Made by a program: the position numbers and the translations under genes. Below are positions 3,360 to 58,077 of a stretch of DNA of 64,000 nt, one piece after another. The DNA comes from an uncultured bacterium. Its GTDB lineage: Bacteria; Patescibacteriota; Minisyncoccia; Phycocordibacterales; CAIJYI01. The stretch lies in assembly GCA_903824855.1 (NCBI GenBank), contig CAIJYI010000041.1, positions 27,159 through 91,158 on the forward strand. Direction: 5' to 3'. Numbering within the stretch: position 1 is the first letter of the stretch; each line of letters starts with the position of its first letter. The notes beneath the pieces are model-generated. The model was not told where the DNA came from. It was given only the letters and a program-made list of their open reading frames with translations, and made no database searches.

Positions 3360-3387
3360 TTGCTTTTTTATAAAAATATGCTATATT
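3360..3387 (+). promoter_or_regulatory. Putative promoter for tRNA-Glu (extended -10 TGcTATATT at 3379-3387; -35-like TTGCTT)
   Basis: Sequence match; lies 73 nt upstream of the tRNA. Confidence 0.3.
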
Positions 3388-3429
3388 CATAAAGTTCATC
3401 AAGTTATAAAGTTCATCAAGTTCATCAAG
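3386..3429 (+). repeat. Tandem 9-nt minisatellite (AAGTTCATC / AAGTTATAA units, about 4.5 copies) in the tRNA-Glu leader
   Basis: Direct reading. The same unit family recurs at 20161-20199 (inside alaS) and, as reverse complement, at 55878-55922. Confidence 0.8.
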
Positions 3430-3459
3430 CCCGAACGCATGGCAAACTTTATTACCCCG

Positions 3460-3531
3460 GGCCCTATCGTCTAACGGTTAGGACGAAAGCTTCTCAAGCT
3501 TTAAATCAGAGTTCGATTCTCTGTAGGGTCA
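3460..3531 (+). tRNA. tRNA-Glu (anticodon CUC)
   Basis: Hand-folded cloverleaf. The 7-bp acceptor GGCCCTA/TAGGGTC has one G-T pair. D-stem is GTCT/GGAC. Anticodon stem AAAGC/GCTTT carries loop TTCTCAA, giving CTC. T-arm is CAGAG-TTCGATT-CTCTG, discriminator A. No CCA is encoded. Confidence 0.8.
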
Positions 3532-3555
3532 CAAAACGCAAAATAAATAAAAATT

Positions 3556-8109: not shown

Positions 8110-8149
8110 CTCATTTATTTAATCTCAAAAACTTCTAAATATACATTAT

Positions 8150-9202
8150 ATGAACAAACTACGAATCAAAACCGACGCAAAAATTTTAATCTGTTTTCTC
8201 TCCATTATCCTCCTTTGTTTTATACAGATGGGAGTTACCTATTTATATCAAGGTGGCGTCTTAAAAAATATCACAAATCTGGAAGGAGTGGAAAACTCAC
8301 TGCAAGTTCTTGCCATATCGAAAAATGGTGACGACCATGTACTCGATGAAACTATTTATTTTTCAATTCTTTACGCCGAGAAAGGTGATTATGAGATGGT
8401 AAATAGCTACAAATCAAAATATGATCAATTATTGGCTGAAAGTAAGATTCGTTTTGAAAAAGGAAGTATTGCCTCTCTCTTGAAACAGAGCCATAGAACG
8501 GCGAAGGATAAACAACTGACAGAGCTGTATATACAAAATATCGCTTCAGCAGAAACCGGTATGAGAGTAATTGTTACGGATGCGTGGACTGCTTTACAAA
8601 ATAAGGATATTCAAAAAGCCAATGCTTTAATCACAAGTTCAGATTATAAAAAATATCATGAGGAAATGCATCTCAATATTGATAATTGGATAGAACTGGA
8701 AACATCGAATCTTGATGTTCTCCGAAATATTGTTTTTACACAATTACAAAACTCAATTTCTTTCACTCTTGTATATTTTATTATGATGCTGGCGGTTTTG
8801 CTTTTTGTTCTTTTCGCCGTCCGAACCTTTGTTGCAGAGCGAGATAGATTTTATGAATTAATTTATAATACTTCACAAGATGCGATGATGACGCTGGAAG
8901 GGCCGGACTGGAAGTTTACATCGGGGAATCCAATGGCTTTAAGGCTATTTAATGTCAAAGACAAAAATGAATTTATGTCTCTCAGTCTCGTTGATTTATC
9001 ACCGGAGAAACAGGAAGATGGACAGCTTTCAAGTGAAAAGGCAAAGATGATGATTGAAAGAGGAATGAAAGAAGGAAGAATTTCTTTCCGCTGGTTGCAT
9101 AAAGAATTTAACGGAAATAATTTTCATGCCGATGTATTGATGAGCAGAATTGATGAAAAAGGAAAGTCATATCTGCAGGCAATCGTAAGAAAAATGGATT
9201 AG
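8150..9202 (+). CDS. Membrane sensor protein with a C-terminal PAS-like domain and no output domain
   Basis: 350 aa: N-terminal TM, extracytoplasmic segment, second TM (TLVYFIMMLAVLLFVLFAV), then a ~110-aa PAS-like fold (YNTSQDAMMTLEGPDW...RWLHKEFNGNNFHADV). No kinase or GGDEF domain is present. Confidence 0.5.
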   Translation: MNKLRIKTDAKILICFLSIILLCFIQMGVTYLYQGGVLKNITNLEGVENSLQVLAISKNGDDHVLDETIYFSILYAEKGDYEMVNSYKSKYDQLLAESKIRFEKGSIASLLKQSHRTAKDKQLTELYIQNIASAETGMRVIVTDAWTALQNKDIQKANALITSSDYKKYHEEMHLNIDNWIELETSNLDVLRNIVFTQLQNSISFTLVYFIMMLAVLLFVLFAVRTFVAERDRFYELIYNTSQDAMMTLEGPDWKFTSGNPMALRLFNVKDKNEFMSLSLVDLSPEKQEDGQLSSEKAKMMIERGMKEGRISFRWLHKEFNGNNFHADVLMSRIDEKGKSYLQAIVRKMD

Positions 9203-10032: not shown

Positions 10033-10776
10033 ATGAATAAGTTATTACTTGCAGTATCTGTATCTTTATTACTTGGCTCCACTGCATTCGCAGACGTAAC
10101 TACTGCTCCTACTCCAACTACGGCAACAAGTACTTTATCCGTCACAGGTTATAGTCATGCGTTTGCTGAAGCACTTGGAAATCTGACTGGTGTGCAAACT
10201 CACGATACTCTTAATTTAACCGGATCACTTTCCGGTAGTGGGAATTTTATTACCGGTCAATCAACTGGTATTGCTGATGTTCTCGGTGCCGGTCCTACTC
10301 ATTCAATTGCGGAAAGTGGCATAATAGGCAGTCTTTCTTTGAGCCTTGACCCTCACTTTATTTCCGGAACTGGCAGTAGTGAGCAATATGGTGTGTTGAG
10401 TTCTTTAGGTACCGGATCAAGTATTGTTAGTGGCAGTTTGTCATTAAGCGGTAATTTAGGATCTAACTTTGGAAGCGCAAGTGCTCTGGATGGCGCAACA
10501 AGTACTCAATTTACATCCGGTTTGCTTTCTGCTCAAGGTTTGAGCTCCGGCGATCTTTGGATTAAAACAGCACTTACCCCAGCGATAATTCCAGACCCAG
10601 GTACAGGTGGTACCGGTGGTGACAACGGTAACAACGGTAACAACGGTAACGGTGGTAACAACGGTAACGGTGGTACTGGCCAAGATTATGGAAATGGTAA
10701 TGGCGGTACAAATAATGGTCATGGTAATGGCGGCAATAACGGTAATGGCCAAGGCACAGGCGGCGGTCAACAATAA
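10033..10776 (+). CDS. Secreted Gly/Ser/Thr/Asn-rich low-complexity protein with C-terminal (G-N-N/G-N-G)n repeats
   Basis: The track start is TTG 9997. The ATG at 10033 follows AGGAAG and begins a signal peptide (MNKLLLAVSVSLLLGSTAFA). The C-terminus carries GDNGNNGNNGNGGNNGNGG and related repeats. Confidence 0.55.
   Translation: MNKLLLAVSVSLLLGSTAFADVTTAPTPTTATSTLSVTGYSHAFAEALGNLTGVQTHDTLNLTGSLSGSGNFITGQSTGIADVLGAGPTHSIAESGIIGSLSLSLDPHFISGTGSSEQYGVLSSLGTGSSIVSGSLSLSGNLGSNFGSASALDGATSTQFTSGLLSAQGLSSGDLWIKTALTPAIIPDPGTGGTGGDNGNNGNNGNGGNNGNGGTGQDYGNGNGGTNNGHGNGGNNGNGQGTGGGQQ
10600..10765 (+). repeat. In-frame tandem 6/9-nt repeats (AACGGTAAC, GGTGGT, AATGGC) encoding (GNN/GNG)n
   Basis: Direct reading of GGTGACAACGGTAACAACGGTAACAACGGTAACGGTGGTAACAACGGTAACGGTGGT... 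Confidence 0.7.
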
Positions 10777-19386: not shown

Positions 19387-21171
19387 ATGCAATCAAATGA
19401 AATAAGGGCGAGATTTTTAACTTTTTTTGAGAAACGCGGGCATGCAATTATCCCGAGCGCTTCACTCATTCCTGAAAATGACCCTTCAGTGCTTTTCAAC
19501 ACGGCCGGAATGCAACCATTAGTGCCGTATCTTCTTGGAGAGTCACATCCGAGTGGTGCGACACGTCTCGCGAATTCACAGAAATGCGTCAGAACGGTTG
19601 ATATCGATGAGATAGGTGATAATACCCATGCGACATTTTTTGAAATGCTCGGCAACTGGTCGCTCGGAGATTATTTTAAGGAAGAGGCCATCGAATGGAG
19701 TTTTAAATTACTTACCGACAAAGAAGAAGGATTTGGACTCGATCCGAAACGACTGTATGTAACAGTTTTTGAAGGTGATGAAAATGCTCCTCGTGATGAC
19801 GAGGCTTTTGAAATCTGGAAAAAATATATTCCCGAACATCGCATTTATTTTATGGGTGCGAAGAATAACTGGTGGAGCCCCGGAGATAATGGTCCGTGCG
19901 GTCCCGATTCGGAAATGTTTTACGATGTGACGGTTGAAGGACTCGGTGACATGACGAAGGAAGAATACTTGAAAGCTGATGATGAACAAAAAATTGTTGA
20001 AATCTGGAACGATGTTTTCATGGAATATGAAAAGAAAGATGGAAAAGTAATAGGGAAGTTGTCAAAGAAAAACGTTGATACCGGATCAGGGCTAGAGCGC
20101 GTGACGATGGTCGTTCAAGGAAAAAATAATATTTATGATACCGATTTACTGCAACCGATAGTTCATCAAGTTCATAAAGTTTCTCAAGTTCGTCAAGTTA
20201 CGGACGGAAATGAACGTGTCGAGCGAATTATCGCCGACCACTTGCGCACTTCGATTTTTATGATTGCGGATGGCGTTGTTCCGTCCAATACCGATAGAGG
20301 TTACATCTTGCGACGTCTTTTACGTCGTGCGGTAAGACTTTCACATACCTTGGAACTCAGTTGCGGGCTGGAAGAACTTGTCGGTTCTGTTATTCATATT
20401 TATACTGATTCCTATCCGAATTTAGTAAAAGATGCCGTCAGAATTCAGAATGAAATAAAGAAAGAAGAAGAAAAATTCCGTCTCACACTCGTCCACGGAA
20501 TGAAAGAATTCGAAAGAATTTCAGAAGGGAAGAGTGAATTATCCGGAGCGGAAACCTTCAGTCTTTTTTCCTCGTATGGTTTTCCGATTGAGATAACAAA
20601 AGAACTTGCTTCTGAAAGAGGAATCGTCGTCGATGAAAAAGGCTTTGAAGAAGAATTCAAAAAACATAAAGAAATTTCTGCCGTCGGTTCCGAACAAAAA
20701 TTTAAAGGCGGACTGGCTGATACTTCGGAAATTTCGACGCGTTATCATACCGCCACACATCTTCTCCAAAAAGCTCTCCGTACGGTTTTAGGCGAACACG
20801 TTTTTCAGAAGGGAAGTAATATTACTGCCGAGAGAATGCGTTTTGACTTCTCTCATGGAGAAAAAATGACCGATGAACAGAAGAAAATGACGGAAGATTT
20901 GGTGAATGAAAAAATTAAGGAAGCCTTGCCGGTAATGTACGAGGATCTTCCGATTGATGAAGCCAGAAAACGCAATCCTATCGGCCTATTTGGCGATAAA
21001 TATGGCGATGTCGTTCGTGTTTATACAATAGGCGAAGGCGATAAAAAATGGAGCATTGAGCTTTGTGGAGGCCCACACGTGAAGAATACGAGTGAACTCG
21101 GTCATTTCAAAATCCTTAAAGAAGAAGCCGTGTCAGCAGGAGTCCGAAGAATAAAAGCTGTGCTTGAATAA
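19387..21171 (+). CDS. alaS: Alanyl-tRNA synthetase, short form (catalytic + tRNA-recognition + editing core; no C-Ala domain)
   Basis: 594 aa. N-terminal class II aaRS motifs are present, along with the editing-site motifs HTATHLL and CGGPHV near the C-terminus. The protein ends soon after CGGPHV. Confidence 0.9.
   Translation: MQSNEIRARFLTFFEKRGHAIIPSASLIPENDPSVLFNTAGMQPLVPYLLGESHPSGATRLANSQKCVRTVDIDEIGDNTHATFFEMLGNWSLGDYFKEEAIEWSFKLLTDKEEGFGLDPKRLYVTVFEGDENAPRDDEAFEIWKKYIPEHRIYFMGAKNNWWSPGDNGPCGPDSEMFYDVTVEGLGDMTKEEYLKADDEQKIVEIWNDVFMEYEKKDGKVIGKLSKKNVDTGSGLERVTMVVQGKNNIYDTDLLQPIVHQVHKVSQVRQVTDGNERVERIIADHLRTSIFMIADGVVPSNTDRGYILRRLLRRAVRLSHTLELSCGLEELVGSVIHIYTDSYPNLVKDAVRIQNEIKKEEEKFRLTLVHGMKEFERISEGKSELSGAETFSLFSSYGFPIEITKELASERGIVVDEKGFEEEFKKHKEISAVGSEQKFKGGLADTSEISTRYHTATHLLQKALRTVLGEHVFQKGSNITAERMRFDFSHGEKMTDEQKKMTEDLVNEKIKEALPVMYEDLPIDEARKRNPIGLFGDKYGDVVRVYTIGEGDKKWSIELCGGPHVKNTSELGHFKILKEEAVSAGVRRIKAVLE
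20161..20199 (+). repeat. In-frame tandem 9-nt repeat (GTTCATCAA / GTTCATAAA / GTTTCTCAA / GTTCGTCAA) inside alaS encoding VHQVHKVSQVRQV
   Basis: Direct reading. Same unit family as the arrays at 3386-3429 and 55878-55922. Confidence 0.7.
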
Positions 21172-26216: not shown

Positions 26217-27197
26217 ATGCTCGAAACAGACATTTTATTGCCATCGAAACCAAGAGTAATTGAGGAAAGTGAATTTTCCGGCGTCTTTGAGATAGACGGA
26301 TTATATCCTGGTTATGGACACACGCTCGGTAATTCGCTTAGGCGAATTATATTGTCATCCCTTCCGGGAGCGGCAATTACCTCCGTAAAAATAGACGGAG
26401 TTAGTCACGAGTTCAGCACGCTTGAAGGCGTCAAACAGGACGTCATAATGATCCTTATTAACCTTAAAAAGGTTCGTTTGAAAGTTACCGGAGATGAACC
26501 GCAGGAGATTACTTTGTCCGCAAAGGGGCCAAAGACACTCACTGCTAAAGACATCAAAACGCCGGGACAAGTAGAAATTTTAAACGGAGATCAGGAGATA
26601 GTTGAGATTACCGGTCACAATACCGCTCTCAACATTAGCATGACCGTTCAAAAAGGGCTCGGATATGCTACCCGCGAAGAATTACAAAAAGACAAAGTCG
26701 AAGTCGGCGCAATTTTACTCGATTCAATTTTCACACCGGTTCGCCGCGTGAATTACGAAGTCGAAGATATGCGCGTTGGAGATAAGACCGACCACAACAG
26801 ACTCCGTATTATGATTGAGACCGACGGTTCCATTACATCAAGAGAAGCTCTTGAAATGGCTATCGAGATCATGATTAAACAATTACAATCAATCGTAGGC
26901 TTTAAAGAAAAATCAGAACAGATTGAAGAGAAAGAAATGGCTGAAGAGGCACAGAACAGAGAAAAAGCCCGAAGAGAAAAAGATGATACCGACCCTGAAC
27001 TCTTAAAGACACGCATCGAGACTATGAATATGACCACGAGAACGCAAAACGCTCTCTCTGCGGCCAACATCAGAACCCTCGGCGGATTAGTCAGAAAGAA
27101 AGAGGAAGATTTACTTGATATCGACGGACTTGGAGAAAAAGGAATTCAAGAAATCAAGAAAGTATTGTTCGATTTAGGATTAACATTAAGACAGTAA
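26217..27197 (+). CDS. rpoA: DNA-directed RNA polymerase alpha subunit
   Basis: 326 aa. ...GHTLGNSLRRIILSSLPGAAIT... with a C-terminal alphaCTD (...LGEKGIQEIKKVL...). Confidence 0.9.
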   Translation: MLETDILLPSKPRVIEESEFSGVFEIDGLYPGYGHTLGNSLRRIILSSLPGAAITSVKIDGVSHEFSTLEGVKQDVIMILINLKKVRLKVTGDEPQEITLSAKGPKTLTAKDIKTPGQVEILNGDQEIVEITGHNTALNISMTVQKGLGYATREELQKDKVEVGAILLDSIFTPVRRVNYEVEDMRVGDKTDHNRLRIMIETDGSITSREALEMAIEIMIKQLQSIVGFKEKSEQIEEKEMAEEAQNREKARREKDDTDPELLKTRIETMNMTTRTQNALSAANIRTLGGLVRKKEEDLLDIDGLGEKGIQEIKKVLFDLGLTLRQ

Positions 27198-28542: not shown

Positions 28543-28637
28543 GAAAAATATATCAAAATTGGTATATTAAGTTGTAAAAAAAGTTAATATTCGTCTTCGT
28601 TCGTCTATAAGCTAAAAGCTATAATCTAAAACCTCGT

Positions 28638-30341
28638 ATGTCATCTCCCGTAGAACTCATTAAAGAAAAATTAGATATTGCGACCGTTGTGGGCTCGTAC
28701 GTCAAGCTAGAGCGGGCCGGCGGGAATTTTCGAGCTAAGTGTCCTTTTCATAATGAAAAGACTCCTAGCTTTATGGTATCGCCCGACAGAGGGTCTTATC
28801 ATTGTTTTGGCTGTAATAAGGGAGGAGATATATTTAGTTTTGTGGAAGAAATAGAAGGCACGGATTTTGCGGGAGCGCTTCGCGTGCTTGCCGATAGGGC
28901 CGGTGTCGTTCTCACTCGAGAAAATCCCGCGGAAAGAAACGAACGGGATCGAATGTTTATGTTGCTCGCTGATGTGACACTTTTTTATCGAAAGGAATTA
29001 CGAAAGAATACTGAAGCAATTGCGTATTTAAGAAAGAGAGGATTGCTTCCCGCCACTATCGACGAATTTCAAATTGGCTTTGCTCCTAATGATTGGCATA
29101 TCACGGAAGCATATCTCAGAAGTCGAGGATACACCGACAATGAAATGGAAAAGACGGGTATGTCGATTCGTACGGAAAAAGGAATATATGACCGCTTCCG
29201 TTCTCGCATTATGTTTCCGCTTTGCGACAGTTCCGGAAGAGTAGTTGGTTTTACCGGTCGTGTTTTCAATAGTGACGATCCTGCCAAATATGTAAATAGT
29301 CCCGAAACTCCACTTTATAATAAATCAAAAATACTCTTTGGACTTTCCCTCGCAAAAGCAGCCATCAGAGAAACCGGTTCCGTCATTCTCGTCGAAGGTC
29401 AGATGGATTTAATCATGTCGCATCAGACGGGAACGAAAAATTCCGTTGCGGTATCGGGTACAGCCCTTACCATAATGCAGTTGGAAATGTTGAAACGTTA
29501 CACTGATAAATTACTCTTTTCTTTTGATAGCGACGATGCCGGACTTGCCGCAGCGAAGAAAAGTGCGATTCCCGCATTGCGCATGGGTTTTGATGTTCGA
29601 GCGATTGAACTATCAGGAGAGAAAGACCCCGCTGACCTTATTCTCGAATCTCCCGAAAAATGGAATGAAGCCATCCGTCAGTCAAAACATATCATCGAAT
29701 TTTTCCTCGCAGTTCTTCAAAAGAAATCCACAGATAAAAGAACATTCCGACTCGCCGTTGAAAAAGATGTTTTGCCGATAGTCGCAGCGATTGAAAGCCG
29801 AATTGATCAAGCTCATTTCATCGATGTTGTCGCCACATTTTTGGATATCTCACGCGATGCTGTTTATGAGGAAGTAAAAAAGACCGCACTTGGCGATACA
29901 AACAGTCCGATAATTCATGAAAAATTCGATGCCGTTTTGCCGCTTAAAAAAACTCCCGCGACAAGGAGGGAAGCGGTCGAAAGAAAGATTAAAGGCGTAA
30001 TATTATGGCAACAGCACGCAAGCGCTCCACTTCTTAATGCCGATGAAATCCTCGCACGTTATAAGGAAATCGCCGGTTTGATTATTGATGCGGAAGAAGC
30101 CGAAAAGAATGCGCTTATTTATGAAGCAGAAGCATTTTATGACGGATCCCTGTCGTTGCAAAAATCGGTGGATGATTTACTGATGAGTTTTGAGAAGGAA
30201 ATTCTGAAGGAAAAATTAGTAGAAACCATGGCAGATTTACGAAAAGCCGAGCTTCTTCATGACTCAGCTAAAGCGCTTCAAATACTGAATGAATGCAATG
30301 TAATTTCCGAGAAACTCAACCGAATGAATACGTCATTGTAA
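28638..30341 (+). CDS. dnaG: DNA primase
   Basis: 567 aa. CHC2 zinc finger CPFHNEKTPSFMVSPDRGSYHCFGCNKGGD. TOPRIM-region motif VILVEGQMD. Confidence 0.85.
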   Translation: MSSPVELIKEKLDIATVVGSYVKLERAGGNFRAKCPFHNEKTPSFMVSPDRGSYHCFGCNKGGDIFSFVEEIEGTDFAGALRVLADRAGVVLTRENPAERNERDRMFMLLADVTLFYRKELRKNTEAIAYLRKRGLLPATIDEFQIGFAPNDWHITEAYLRSRGYTDNEMEKTGMSIRTEKGIYDRFRSRIMFPLCDSSGRVVGFTGRVFNSDDPAKYVNSPETPLYNKSKILFGLSLAKAAIRETGSVILVEGQMDLIMSHQTGTKNSVAVSGTALTIMQLEMLKRYTDKLLFSFDSDDAGLAAAKKSAIPALRMGFDVRAIELSGEKDPADLILESPEKWNEAIRQSKHIIEFFLAVLQKKSTDKRTFRLAVEKDVLPIVAAIESRIDQAHFIDVVATFLDISRDAVYEEVKKTALGDTNSPIIHEKFDAVLPLKKTPATRREAVERKIKGVILWQQHASAPLLNADEILARYKEIAGLIIDAEEAEKNALIYEAEAFYDGSLSLQKSVDDLLMSFEKEILKEKLVETMADLRKAELLHDSAKALQILNECNVISEKLNRMNTSL

Positions 30342-55779: not shown

Positions 55780-55815
55780 AATGGCGTCACGAGTAACTCG
55801 TGACGCCATTTTTAT
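55780..55815 (+). terminator. Rho-independent terminator (AATGGCGTCACGAG-TAA-CTCGTGACGCCATT + TTTAT)
   Basis: Direct reading. Confidence 0.8.
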
Positions 55816-55877
55816 ACTATTTTAATTACATTGTTTTCGTCCATACTTTATAAAATTGATGCCTGCCTGTAGGTAGG

Positions 55878-55922
55878 AACTTGATGAACCTGATGAACTT
55901 TATAAACTTGATGAACTTATAA
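55878..55922 (-). repeat. Tandem 9-nt minisatellite (reverse complement of AAGTTCATC units, 5 copies) covering the last 7 codons, the stop and the 3' flank of the M3 peptidase gene
   Basis: Direct reading. It encodes ...GFISSSSL* on the minus strand. Confidence 0.8.
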
Positions 55923-58077
55923 ATCCGTATTGTCGCATAAGTGCATCAATACTTGGTTTTCTTCCGAGGAACGCTTCGTTGCTTTCAGAAAACGGTCTTG
56001 ATCCACCGACGGATAATATTTCATCGTTGAATTTTTTTCCGACCGACCAATCGATTTTTCCATTTTTTATAAATTGTGAGAAATCATCAGCCGCCAGAAC
56101 TTCGGCCCAGTGATAACTGTAATATCCTGCGGAATATCCTCCTGCAAAGATGTGACCAAAACTATTCGGATACGTCGACATCCATGGATAGAACGTTGTT
56201 ACCACATTTTTGCGATACACGTTGCTAAACATCTCGTCTGATTGTCCGGATTTACCGGGAACATATTCTAAATGTAAACGGAAATCAAACTCATCAAGAA
56301 CGGTTGCCCGAGAAGCGCTTAATCCTTTTCCGAACATTCTTACTTCACGTGCGGTTTCCAAAAGAGCCAAAGGCATTTTCTCTCCGGTTTTGTAATGGAA
56401 AGCAAAGCTCCCAATCACTTCCGGTTGCCAAACGAAATTTTCCATAAATTGACTTGGCAGTTCTACGCCGTCCCAAGGAACGCCACCACCGCCGGAAATA
56501 TCTCTTGTGTTGATTTTTGTTAACAATTTTTGAGAATTATGTCCGAATTCATGGAAGAGATAGAGAACCTCTTGAAATCCAAGAAGCGGTTCTTCTCCCG
56601 CTGTTGGTGCCTGAAGATTAAGAACGATAAGTCCGACCGGTAATTGAATGGTCCCGTCACTTTTTTGATAGCGATCAACCATAGAATTCGCCCAACCTCC
56701 GCTATTTTTTCCCTCACGCTGAAACAAGTCTAAATAAAATCCGCCGATTAAATTTCCTTCGCTTGAATATACTTCGTAAAATTTAACGCTCTTGTGCCAG
56801 ACAGAAACGCCGGCTCTTTCGCGGATAGTAACTCCGTAAAGTTTATTCACCACAGAAGAAAGTCCTCCCATTACTTTTGATAAAGGGAAATAAGGACGCA
56901 TGGCTTCTTCGGAAAAATTAAATTTCTCCTTTTTTAAGAGCTGTTGATAATACGACACATCCCACGGTTCGACTTTTTTTAAACCGTCCTTTGAAAGTGC
57001 GAAGGCACTGAGTTCTTTGATATCTCTTTCTGCGAACGGACGTGAACGTGATTGCAAGTCGGTAATGAAATTCATTACCTCCGCAGTGCTTTTCGCCATC
57101 CTCGTTTCCAACGCCATTTCGGCGTAGTTATTAAAACCGAGCAGTTTTGCTTCCTTATGACGAAGCTCCAATATTTTTTCTATAACGGGAGCATTATCAA
57201 ATTTTTGTCCTTGGGGGCCGTTTGCTGATGCGACCGAGTAAATTGCGCGATATGCTTCTTCACGAAGGTCCCGGTTTTTTGCATAGCTAATAATCGTTCC
57301 AACTGTGCCGTCTCCAAGAGTAAGAACATATCCGTTTAAGCCGTTTTTTTGCGCGACTTCTTTAGCGGAATTTATTACCGACTGCGGAATACCGTCAAGT
57401 ATTTTCTCATCGGTAATATGTTTTTTCCATGAATTGGAAGAAGCGGTTTCGTTGTCGGAAAATTTTTTCGTGAGGGTCCCTAATTCAATAATTATTTTTG
57501 TGAGATCCTGCCGTTTTTCCGCAGAAAGCAAAATTCCGGACAGACGATAATCACGAAGTGTATTATCAAGAGATGCTATTTGTTCGGGCAGTAAATTATT
57601 TTTTTCCGCGGTATCTCTGACTTCTTTGTATGCGTTGAACATTTTTTCGTTCTGAGCATTGGAGAGTTCGAATTGAGTGATTTTTGTTTGACATCTTTCA
57701 TAGATGGCGTCACTTTTTTCACGGACAGATTCTTCCGGTTTTGAGACCGTCGACAGGTGATTGATTGGATACCAAAGTTGATATAACTCATCAGCCATCT
57801 CATTTTGTGGAAGAACAAAATTTTCCCACGTATAAGGACTGCCTTCGTTTAATCTTTTTTGTAACCATTCGTTTTGTCTCGCGAGTAAGGCGTCAATTTC
57901 CGGTTCAACCGTCAAAATATCTATTTTCTGCCAGTTGTAGAGAATCAGTTCAGTTTTTGGGTGTGAGGGCGTTTGAGAAAAATTTTCAAGCGCCGCGTAT
58001 CCAAGGAAAATCGTGCAGAGGGAAACAACCAGTGCAATAATCGTTCGTTTCATTTTGACTCCTTTAAAGGTTTTCAA
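55900..58077 (-). CDS. M3-family zinc oligopeptidase (Dcp/oligopeptidase A-like), secreted
   Basis: 725 aa. Signal peptide, then the zinc motif HEFGH (LFHEFGHNSQ) and a downstream E ligand. Confidence 0.85.
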   Translation of the reverse strand: MKTFKGVKMKRTIIALVVSLCTIFLGYAALENFSQTPSHPKTELILYNWQKIDILTVEPEIDALLARQNEWLQKRLNEGSPYTWENFVLPQNEMADELYQLWYPINHLSTVSKPEESVREKSDAIYERCQTKITQFELSNAQNEKMFNAYKEVRDTAEKNNLLPEQIASLDNTLRDYRLSGILLSAEKRQDLTKIIIELGTLTKKFSDNETASSNSWKKHITDEKILDGIPQSVINSAKEVAQKNGLNGYVLTLGDGTVGTIISYAKNRDLREEAYRAIYSVASANGPQGQKFDNAPVIEKILELRHKEAKLLGFNNYAEMALETRMAKSTAEVMNFITDLQSRSRPFAERDIKELSAFALSKDGLKKVEPWDVSYYQQLLKKEKFNFSEEAMRPYFPLSKVMGGLSSVVNKLYGVTIRERAGVSVWHKSVKFYEVYSSEGNLIGGFYLDLFQREGKNSGGWANSMVDRYQKSDGTIQLPVGLIVLNLQAPTAGEEPLLGFQEVLYLFHEFGHNSQKLLTKINTRDISGGGGVPWDGVELPSQFMENFVWQPEVIGSFAFHYKTGEKMPLALLETAREVRMFGKGLSASRATVLDEFDFRLHLEYVPGKSGQSDEMFSNVYRKNVVTTFYPWMSTYPNSFGHIFAGGYSAGYYSYHWAEVLAADDFSQFIKNGKIDWSVGKKFNDEILSVGGSRPFSESNEAFLGRKPSIDALMRQYGFISSSSL

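Follow-up and report, generated by a model that had tools for sequence, protein, structure and literature searches.

Here we report three tandem arrays of a 9-nt unit in a 64,000-nt stretch of DNA (hereafter the window; positions 27,159 to 91,158 of contig CAIJYI010000041.1) from an uncultured Paceibacteria/Parcubacteria bacterium, a small-genome representative of the CPR (candidate phyla radiation) with about 40% G+C. The arrays are real and belong to one motif family, the AAAGTT repeat family, and are located in the leader of a tRNA-Glu, within alaS, and across the 3' end of an M3 peptidase gene. Outside the window, as judged from the sequences of related loci, repeats of this family form the arms of cassettes that enclose a small gene of the family PF05635 ("23S rRNA IVS protein", four-helix bundle). 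On balance, we lean towards reading the window arrays as orphan, cargo-less, one-armed members of an STRR-like family in tolerated positions rather than as local regulators. Taken by itself, the finding adds a nonamer form to an already described type of bacterial tandem repeat, and its value lies in the entry that it offers to the association with PF05635 cassettes.

Three arrays of one repeat family

The initial annotation had described arrays of four to five 9-nt units at three loci (tRNA-Glu leader, in frame in alaS, 3' end of the M3 peptidase gene). Tandem Repeats Finder and an excess of unit counts confirmed the arrays, and the annotation of the window confirmed their contexts. The features concerned are listed below with their positions in the window.

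3386..3429, plus strand: array 1, units TTCATAAAG TTCATCAAG TTATAAAG TTCATCAAG TTCATCAAG, within the 5' leader of pre-tRNA-Glu
20160..20199, plus strand: array 2, units (G)TTCATCAA GTTCATAAA GTTTCTCAA GTTCGTCAA GTT, in frame in alaS (19387-21171)
55877..55923, minus strand: array 3, minus-strand units TTTATAAG TTCATCAAG TTTATAAAG TTCATCAGG TTCATCAAG
3360..3387, plus strand: putative tRNA-Glu promoter read from the sequence (-35 TTGCTT, 16-nt spacer, extended -10 TGcTATATT)
3447..3455, plus strand: lone degenerate inverted unit CTTTATTAC, which pairs with array unit GTTATAAAGTT in the predicted leader RNA
3460..3532, plus strand: tRNA-Glu, anticodon CTC, 30 nt beyond the end of array 1
55900-58077, minus strand: M3 peptidase gene, stop codon at 55900-55902, last six codons and stop overlapped by array 3
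55846..55854, minus strand: lone palindromic unit TTTATAAAG / CTTTATAAA, about 25 nt downstream of array 3
about 55780-55815, minus strand: GC-rich terminator hairpin, about 70-105 nt further along the strand, with the lone palindromic unit upstream of it

Period-9 arrays were recovered at 3386-3429 (5.0 copies), 20160-20199 (4.4 copies) and 55877-55918/23 (4.7 copies). Each locus holds 4.4-5.0 head-to-tail copies, that is, at least three copies of a unit of 5-11 nt, and the unit TTCATMAAG is common to the three unlinked loci within 64 kb, a multi-locus occurrence of the STRR/LSSR type. The exact 9-mer TTCATCAAG was observed 7 times in the window (expected 0.99), with six of the seven copies inside arrays, and the 18-mer TTCATMAAGTTCATMAAG with up to three mismatches 10 times (expected 0.43), with nine of the ten inside arrays. 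Single strict units are not enriched in the window (17 in total, 11 in arrays and 6 outside; expected total 9.5). Because those outside the arrays are at or below background, the phenomenon is one of arrays rather than of a dispersed motif, and within the window single copies are not over-represented in the manner of a DNA uptake sequence or a dispersed protein-binding motif. The tandem organization is far above chance.

The arrays are not strictly 9-nt periodic, because loci 1 and 3 each hold one 8-nt unit (TTATAAAG at 3404-3411, the third unit of array 1, and TTTATAAG at 55916-55923). Together with 7-nt units inside alaS of relatives, these units weaken the argument of the initial annotation that a 9-nt period preserves the reading frame. 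All three window arrays are in sense orientation relative to the local gene, which is probably a coincidence because the wider family shows no bias in orientation (24 sense, 25 antisense, 9 convergent, 5 divergent relative to flanking genes).

The wider family and PF05635 cassettes

The family was surveyed by scanning one genome per species with TTCATMAAGTTCATMAAG, which returned at least 119 loci. Among the loci listed, true arrays are present in about 64 (approximately 89 arrays, 76 of them intergenic), and roughly half matched only by coincidence in coding sequence (FIKFIK, or DELDEL when read on the opposite strand). The hosts among the matches listed are Bacteroidota, Ignavibacteria, many Patescibacteria phyla, Flexilinea, Microcoleus, and a few proteobacteria-labelled metagenome-assembled genomes (MAGs); the arrays in these hosts frequently come in inverted pairs. 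The family has the consensus TTYRTMAAG with an invariant core AAGTT, and 7-8-nt units (TTGAAAG, TTAAAAG, TTATAAAG) are interspersed in its arrays. Several arrays per 8-kb locus are common in array-bearing genomes, which also hold many unrelated 7-8-nt arrays, and there are none in the coding-coincidence loci. Arrays usually adjoin a gene boundary with one of their ends; in 29 cases the first, degenerate unit contains or closely follows the upstream gene's stop codon, as at the M3 peptidase. Forward arrays of CPR genomes often have an inverted array 7-30 nt beyond them. Among 243 units, departures from the array consensus occur in 25% at positions 3 and 4 (Y, R), in 9% at position 6, and in 0.8-4% at T1, T2, T5, A7, A8 and G9; such conservation of the AAGTT core is suggestive of a factor that recognises it.

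Only tRNAs matched Rfam in the window and in 19 array-bearing loci. Among 133 open reading frames (ORFs) flanking arrays, which are mostly ordinary housekeeping genes, there was no enrichment of transposases, integrases or regulators. Three of the 133 are PF05635 genes; they were the only members of this family in the loci then collected, and each is bracketed by arrays, as follows.

L050 (Flexilinea): forward nonamer array, PF05635 gene, inverted nonamer array
L099 (Saccharibacteria): forward array, two genes, inverted array
L028 (Bacteroidetes): (GCTGGAT)16 and nonamer array, PF05635 gene, (ATCCAGC)4

The units of the Saccharibacteria locus are TCAAG-flavoured, as in the window, and the window units TTCATAAAG, TTTATAAAG, TTATAAAG and TTCATCAAG are also found in the arms of L050, L099, L256 and L266-L279. 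Bacteroidetes MAGs with nonamer arrays also hold long heptamer arrays, often as inverted pairs around the nonamer array:

L022 6051-6264; L028 1-111 and 659-689; L094 1371-1534: heptamer arrays TAGGCAA/CTATTGC, GCTGGAT/ATCCAGC and ATGCTGG x23

An independent test covered 15 plasmid-borne PF05635 homologues, mostly cyanobacterial (L241-L255). At least 11 of the 15 are flanked on either side by inverted tandem arrays; the upstream flank and the reverse complement of the downstream flank have 17-42 7-mers in common, against control maxima of 2-10. The units of the plasmid cassettes differ by lineage (GGGGAAA, ACAGGTG, GTAGGGA, GGGAACA, GGTTYAA, TCAGGAG and others), and the cassettes are located within operons, for example between cas6 and cas4, cas10 and cmr3, or nrdB and nrdA. 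An operon A-B-C that two Nostoc plasmids have in common, with proteins 88-96% identical, provides filled and empty sites at both junctions.

Nostoc plasmid L241: A-B junction empty, 3 nt; B-C junction with cassette
Nostoc plasmid L248: A-B junction with a different cassette; B-C junction empty, 3 nt

These pairs of filled and empty sites show that the arrays arrive together with the PF05635 gene.

Proteins 65-100% identical to that of L050 are very common in Bacteroidota. The three cassettes of this lineage that were fetched all have AAAGTT-family arms adjoining the start and stop codons; their positions are as follows.

Segatella hominis and gut metagenomes (L256-L265): in a diversity-generating retroelement, between the bAvd and reverse transcriptase genes
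Vicingaceae: between sufS and sufE
Flexilinea relatives: between pta and ackA

The Saccharibacteria protein, which is approximately 50% identical to the L050 lineage, also has AAAGTT-family arms; more distant PF05635 lineages have other units. One protein lineage, found in three phyla, has precisely the AAAGTT family. In the loci compared, the repeat unit follows the lineage of the PF05635 protein across phyla, and inverted arrays with units of 5-9 nt are the usual flanks of PF05635 genes. The number of units per arm differs between strains that encode an identical PF05635 protein. The predicted arm duplexes are strong in most of the cassettes tested (z about -3 to -9) and weaker in three. The closest solved structures to the PF05635 protein (2GSC and 2RLD) are uncharacterised, and each was deposited with five chains. 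The interpretation given in the initial annotation is supported in part: its suggestion of a mobile or recombinogenic motif comes close to the picture at related loci, where AAAGTT repeats are arms of insertion cassettes with varying unit number.

The three sites in strains and relatives

Strains were compared by their assembly consensus sequences. Contigs from other samples that are 99.96-100% identical to the window carry identical arrays throughout, and copy-number polymorphism, which the initial annotation had proposed as a check, was absent in 6 (locus 1), 4 (locus 2) and 2 (locus 3) independent assemblies. At the 3' end of tRNA-Glu, however, the strains with identical arrays are set apart by an integrated element; because the arrays are identical in strains that differ elsewhere, they are not visibly hypermutable. 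The element (strains L124-L129) is integrated directly after ...GGGTCACAAA at the 3' end of tRNA-Glu(CTC) (window 3530-3540, breakpoint 3535/3536) and encodes a 515-aa large serine recombinase (Resolvase + Recombinase + Zn_ribbon_recom); the window represents the empty site. The recombinase gene is inverted in L126, and the junction is different in L129.

No array of the family was found in approximately 294 kb of sequence from Parcubacteria relatives. In relatives, each of the three sites holds a lone unit-like sequence or else a related repeat: orthologous sites lack the repeats at the end of the M3 gene and in the tRNA-Glu leader (31 relatives), and alaS is the exception, with related repeats present. 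Because relatives have unit-like sequences and no arrays, the arrays are lineage-specific, each at a place where a unit-like sequence was already present; by this comparison they are recent and would have arisen after the split from the sequenced relatives.

At locus 1, the putative -10 element of tRNA-Glu overlaps the first two T of array 1. The promoter block is kept in relative L230, and a consensus promoter scan returned nothing above threshold at this locus, so that the promoter is putative only. The predicted RNA fold of 3386-3459 has a free energy of -9.5 kcal/mol (z = -3.0). The array has no counterpart in any of the 31 metagenomic contigs of relatives that carry the same tRNA-Glu; L230, the only one of them with the promoter of the window, has a 35-nt leader with a single GTTCAAAAG...CTTTAAC and no array. 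Most Parcubacteria relatives (L210-L240) have a conserved motif (..TGTTGTAAAGT.. or ..ATTGTAGAKTGT..) 10-25 nt upstream of tRNA-Glu(CTC), which is probably the -10 region and resembles the family unit (TTGTAAAG). In seven of these contigs a murF-like gene lies directly upstream of tRNA-Glu, as in the window.

At locus 2, the array encodes VHQVHKVSQVRQV in a hypervariable loop of the 594-aa alanyl-tRNA synthetase (AlaRS). Over 120 homologues, both the sequence of this loop and its length vary, the latter by up to 25 residues. In three relatives (AlaRS 74-85% identical), the DNA at the position of array 2 is repetitive too, with other units.

L133: GTCCATAAA GTCGAAA GTCAAAA GTCCATAAA
L134: similar GTC-type repeat
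L135: A-rich repeat of GTAAAAA type

The alignment of homologues, which was to reveal whether the AlaRS segment is an insertion, gave no clean insertion: the segment replaces a hypervariable loop that in relatives is already encoded by related AAAGT-type repeats. Relative L134 (AlaRS 74% identical) also has an intergenic inverted hairpin at 8146-8243, (AATTTCT)x4, a 40-nt loop and (TTAGAAA)x3; on the strength of this hairpin, CPR relatives carry the same inverted-array architecture with other units.

At locus 3, the peptidase ends in ...YGFISSSSL*, with the stop codon within the third unit of array 3; the SSSSL end results from the frame shift caused by the 8-nt first unit TTTATAAG. As four CPR homologues end in ...YGF[IVA][KR]*, only about SSSSL is array-derived. 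The initial annotation, which had assigned the last seven residues (FISSSSL) and the stop codon to the array, was right about the stop codon and SSSSL, and the remainder matches the ends of the homologues. In three fetched M3 homologues, the DNA ends in TTCATAAGA-TAA, TTTGTGAAG-TAA or TTTATAAAA-TAA with no array. In the predicted fold of the 3' untranslated region (UTR), the lone palindromic unit pairs with a unit of array 3; the z value of -4.7 stems mainly from the separate GC-rich terminator. The lone inverted units are located 15-35 nt downstream of arrays 1 and 3. The peptidase has only four CPR homologues (55-62% identity), and the next-best matches are gammaproteobacterial oligopeptidase A (approximately 40-46%), which suggests that it was acquired horizontally by this Paceibacteria lineage.

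Further repeats were observed in the window. An array of period 9/18 at 10600-10675 (GGTAACGGTGGTAACAAC, 3.7-5.7 copies by Tandem Repeats Finder) is probably a Gly/Asn coding repeat. Two micro-arrays at 28590-28631, (TTCGTC)x2.5 and (CTAWAAG)x4, end 6 nt upstream of the dnaG start codon (ATG at 28638); the heptamer AAAAGCT also adjoins a PF05635 gene on Pseudanabaena plasmid L250.

Origin of the arrays and relation to known repeats

The favoured reading, orphan arms in tolerated positions, runs as follows. In Bacteroidota, Chloroflexota (Flexilinea) and Saccharibacteria, AAAGTT repeats serve as two inverted arms around a small PF05635 gene; the arms could pair into a long stem, and arrays without any gene are much the commoner form. 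Cassettes are located between the genes of operons, with matching empty sites that lack repeats. The window arrays would have arisen after divergence, each where relatives already hold one unit-like sequence. They may have grown by slipped-strand or unequal exchange on this seed, or may have been copied or inserted from another array under the guidance of microhomology. They would persist because a longer tRNA leader, an altered AlaRS surface loop and a C-terminal tail of 4-5 residues are all tolerable, and they presumably do not regulate the tRNA-Glu, AlaRS or peptidase genes.

Several points weigh against this reading. In the 64-kb window, PF05635 genes are absent from the window ORFs (hmmsearch) and from the neighbouring ORFs (Pfam scan), and there is no second inverted array, only the single degenerate inverted units at 3447-3455 and 55846-55854. 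The window arrays show no length polymorphism among the assemblies compared, and the comparisons with relatives included few sequences per locus. Any local-duplication model predicts a seed where an array starts, so such a seed does not separate slippage from targeted insertion. Loci entered the family survey through the motif itself, and the position-specific conservation of the units could equally reflect biased amplification of units with intact junctions rather than selection. In viral contigs, the exact double unit had 5 matches, including one true array, whereas two permuted-control 18-mers had 39 and 27, mostly in coding repeats or related phages. Because the permuted controls gave more raw matches than the real 18-mer, bare recurrence of the 18-mer is uninformative; the informative evidence is the intergenic arrays with a common variant spectrum that cluster within genomes.

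A possible but less probable alternative is that the arrays are independent local minisatellites, formed by replication slippage and unrelated to PF05635, with A/T-rich seeds (TAAAG at stops, TTTATAAA) and the near-palindromic unit favouring misalignment. The unit-like seeds at all three sites in relatives, the self-complementarity of TTTATAAA, the stop codon within the first degenerate unit of many arrays, the many unrelated 7-8-nt arrays in array-bearing genomes, and the lack of a cargo gene or partner arm in the window all speak for this explanation. It does not account for the TCAAG flavour shared by all three window 9-nt arrays of such strength, nor for a single variant spectrum across phyla in which AAGTT is invariant and the other positions are approximately tenfold more variable; moreover, the unit family tracks the protein lineage, and the approximately 294 kb of relatives contain no such array.

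We consider it unlikely that the arrays are double-stranded DNA binding sites at which an oligomerising protein (perhaps the pentameric PF05635 protein in trans, or a nucleoid protein) would recognise AAGTT every 9 bp, comparable to operator or centromere arrays such as the omega heptads or metboxes of ribbon-helix-helix repressors. A conserved core with a variable spacer, the nearly equal use of both orientations relative to genes, and the occurrence of direct and inverted arrangements would fit such sites, and the paired tandem repeats of Geobacter have been proposed as sites of a global regulator (PMC2700814). However, single units are at background in the window, the mixture of 7-, 8- and 9-nt units within arrays would break the helical register, close relatives have no arrays at the same genes, and the binding protein is only hypothetical.

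A role at the RNA level (as structures in leaders or 3' UTRs, as determinants of processing by RNase III or RNase P, or as terminators or stabilisers) is less likely still. All three window arrays are in sense orientation, a lone inverted unit pairs with array units at each of loci 1 and 3 (z of -3.0 and -4.7), and the long stems predicted for paired arms resemble those of 23S rRNA intervening sequences (IVS), which RNase III processes. The stems in the window, however, measure no more than about 9-11 bp, a separate GC-rich terminator of the peptidase gene follows further downstream, the family is unbiased in orientation (24 sense versus 25 antisense), Rfam gave no match to the arrays, and the orthologous leaders and 3' ends lack them.

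That the arrays are contingency loci, hypermutable repeats whose copy number switches expression or protein length, is very improbable: the 9-nt period is mostly frame-keeping and family arms vary in unit number between strains of other organisms, but at the level of assembly consensus copy number does not differ among close strains, even where these differ elsewhere (for example, by the element at tRNA-Glu), and no obvious switch effect goes with copy number where the arrays lie: downstream of the -10 element, within a surface loop, and at the C-terminal end of a protein.

Other candidates were rejected. A general association with tRNA genes was dismissed since, over 60 loci, there is only one further array upstream of a tRNA, and a phage origin since only one of the five viral matches was a true array and permuted controls matched more. 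Promoter function was suggested by the sigma-70-like TTCATA-16 bp-TAAAGT of the F-reading arrays, but half of the arrays are antisense to both neighbours and the consensus scan was empty at locus 1. Many family units lack the C required for a Rho loading site (YC every 9 nt), and CpG decay behind the variation at Y3 and R4 fails to account for the invariant G9. Among other resemblances, neither the T7 epsilon enhancer AACTTTA, IHF and DnaA boxes, the rolling-circle nick site CTTGATA and IS91 targets nor the anticodon arm of tRNA-Glu (AAAGCTTCTCAAGCTTT) fits the whole family.

The closest known relatives of the orphan arrays are other short tandem repeats. STRR heptamers were reportedly described from cyanobacteria by Mazel and co-workers in 1990. 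Like these and the TAACTGA repeats, the AAAGTT repeats consist of short head-to-tail units, occur many times per genome, mostly between genes and often at start or stop codons, and are spread sporadically across phyla in a manner suggestive of horizontal transfer, with no function known. They differ in their 9-nt unit (with 7-8-nt variants), their AAGTT core and their hosts in the FCB group and the CPR, and in that one window copy lies inside an essential gene; with a 9-nt unit and a Paceibacteria/Parcubacteria host, the window arrays are not STRR in the strict sense of heptamers of heterocystous cyanobacteria. TAACTGA heptamers occur in Beggiatoaceae, Cyanobacteria and Bacteroidetes, sporadically across phyla and beside start codons, with unknown function (MacGregor 2015, PMC4679880).

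In Geobacter metallireducens, inverted pairs of 3-5 tandem 7-9-nt units are located between genes, with tens of pairs per genome and some intragenic, and were read as putative sites of a global regulator (IHF/HU), with a cargo gene undiscussed (PMC2700814). The class 3 unit of Geobacter, MTYCTGA, is the arm unit of the PF05635 cassette of Nostoc punctiforme (L248), whereas the unit sequences of the window differ from those of Geobacter. The tandem repeats of Borgs are recent and fast-evolving, are located between and within genes, and keep the frame in genes, where they add low-complexity peptide (PMC9879509). The in-frame repeat in the window likewise creates a new peptide; Borg repeats, however, arise independently with locus-specific units, whereas the unit family of the window recurs across loci and phyla.

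The AAAGTT repeats share with REP/BIME and miniature inverted-repeat transposable elements that they are multi-copy extragenic elements at gene ends, often in hairpin-forming inverted pairs, and that gene-less copies outnumber gene-carrying ones. They differ from REP/BIME in having a 9-nt unit rather than a 20-40-nt palindrome with a GTAG/CGTC head, no association with RAYT or other transposases among the flanking ORFs, and no target-site duplication in the loci seen. IVS of 23S rRNA carry an ORF of PF05635 ("S23p/four-helix-bundle"). As in these IVS, the cassettes at related loci enclose a small PF05635 gene in stem-capable inverted sequences and do not destroy the transcribed region; unlike in IVS, the cassettes are located in mRNA operons and their arms are tandem repeats, and the window arrays lack both ORF and partner arm. 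A description of the PF05635 family is cited in PMC10053308. No publication on this nonamer family or on a link between PF05635 and repeats was found in a search that left out subscription journals.

Tentatively, and with less confidence than we place in the orphan reading of the window arrays, we suggest that STRR-type arrays, including the AAAGTT nonamers, might be cis-acting arms of small mobile cassettes that have escaped recognition. Their sole gene would encode a PF05635 four-helix-bundle protein, Avd-like and a pentamer in 2GSC and 2RLD, each lineage of which would recognise its own unit; the stem formed by the arms would allow the cassette to reside in operons or rRNA, and orphan arrays would be footprints or products generated in trans.

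On their own, the window arrays are a modest curiosity, consisting of a longer tRNA leader, a rewritten AlaRS loop and a short peptidase tail. Bacterial short tandem repeats (STRR, TAACTGA, the "global regulator sites" of Geobacter) have repeatedly been described without an origin or function, and if the cassette-arm reading is true, it would explain the decades-old puzzle of identical short tandem repeats that occur sporadically in distant phyla. If confirmed genome-wide, it would alert annotators that such arrays can invade the coding ends and loops of essential genes, and would provide a testable model both for these repeats and for a very common protein family of unknown function.

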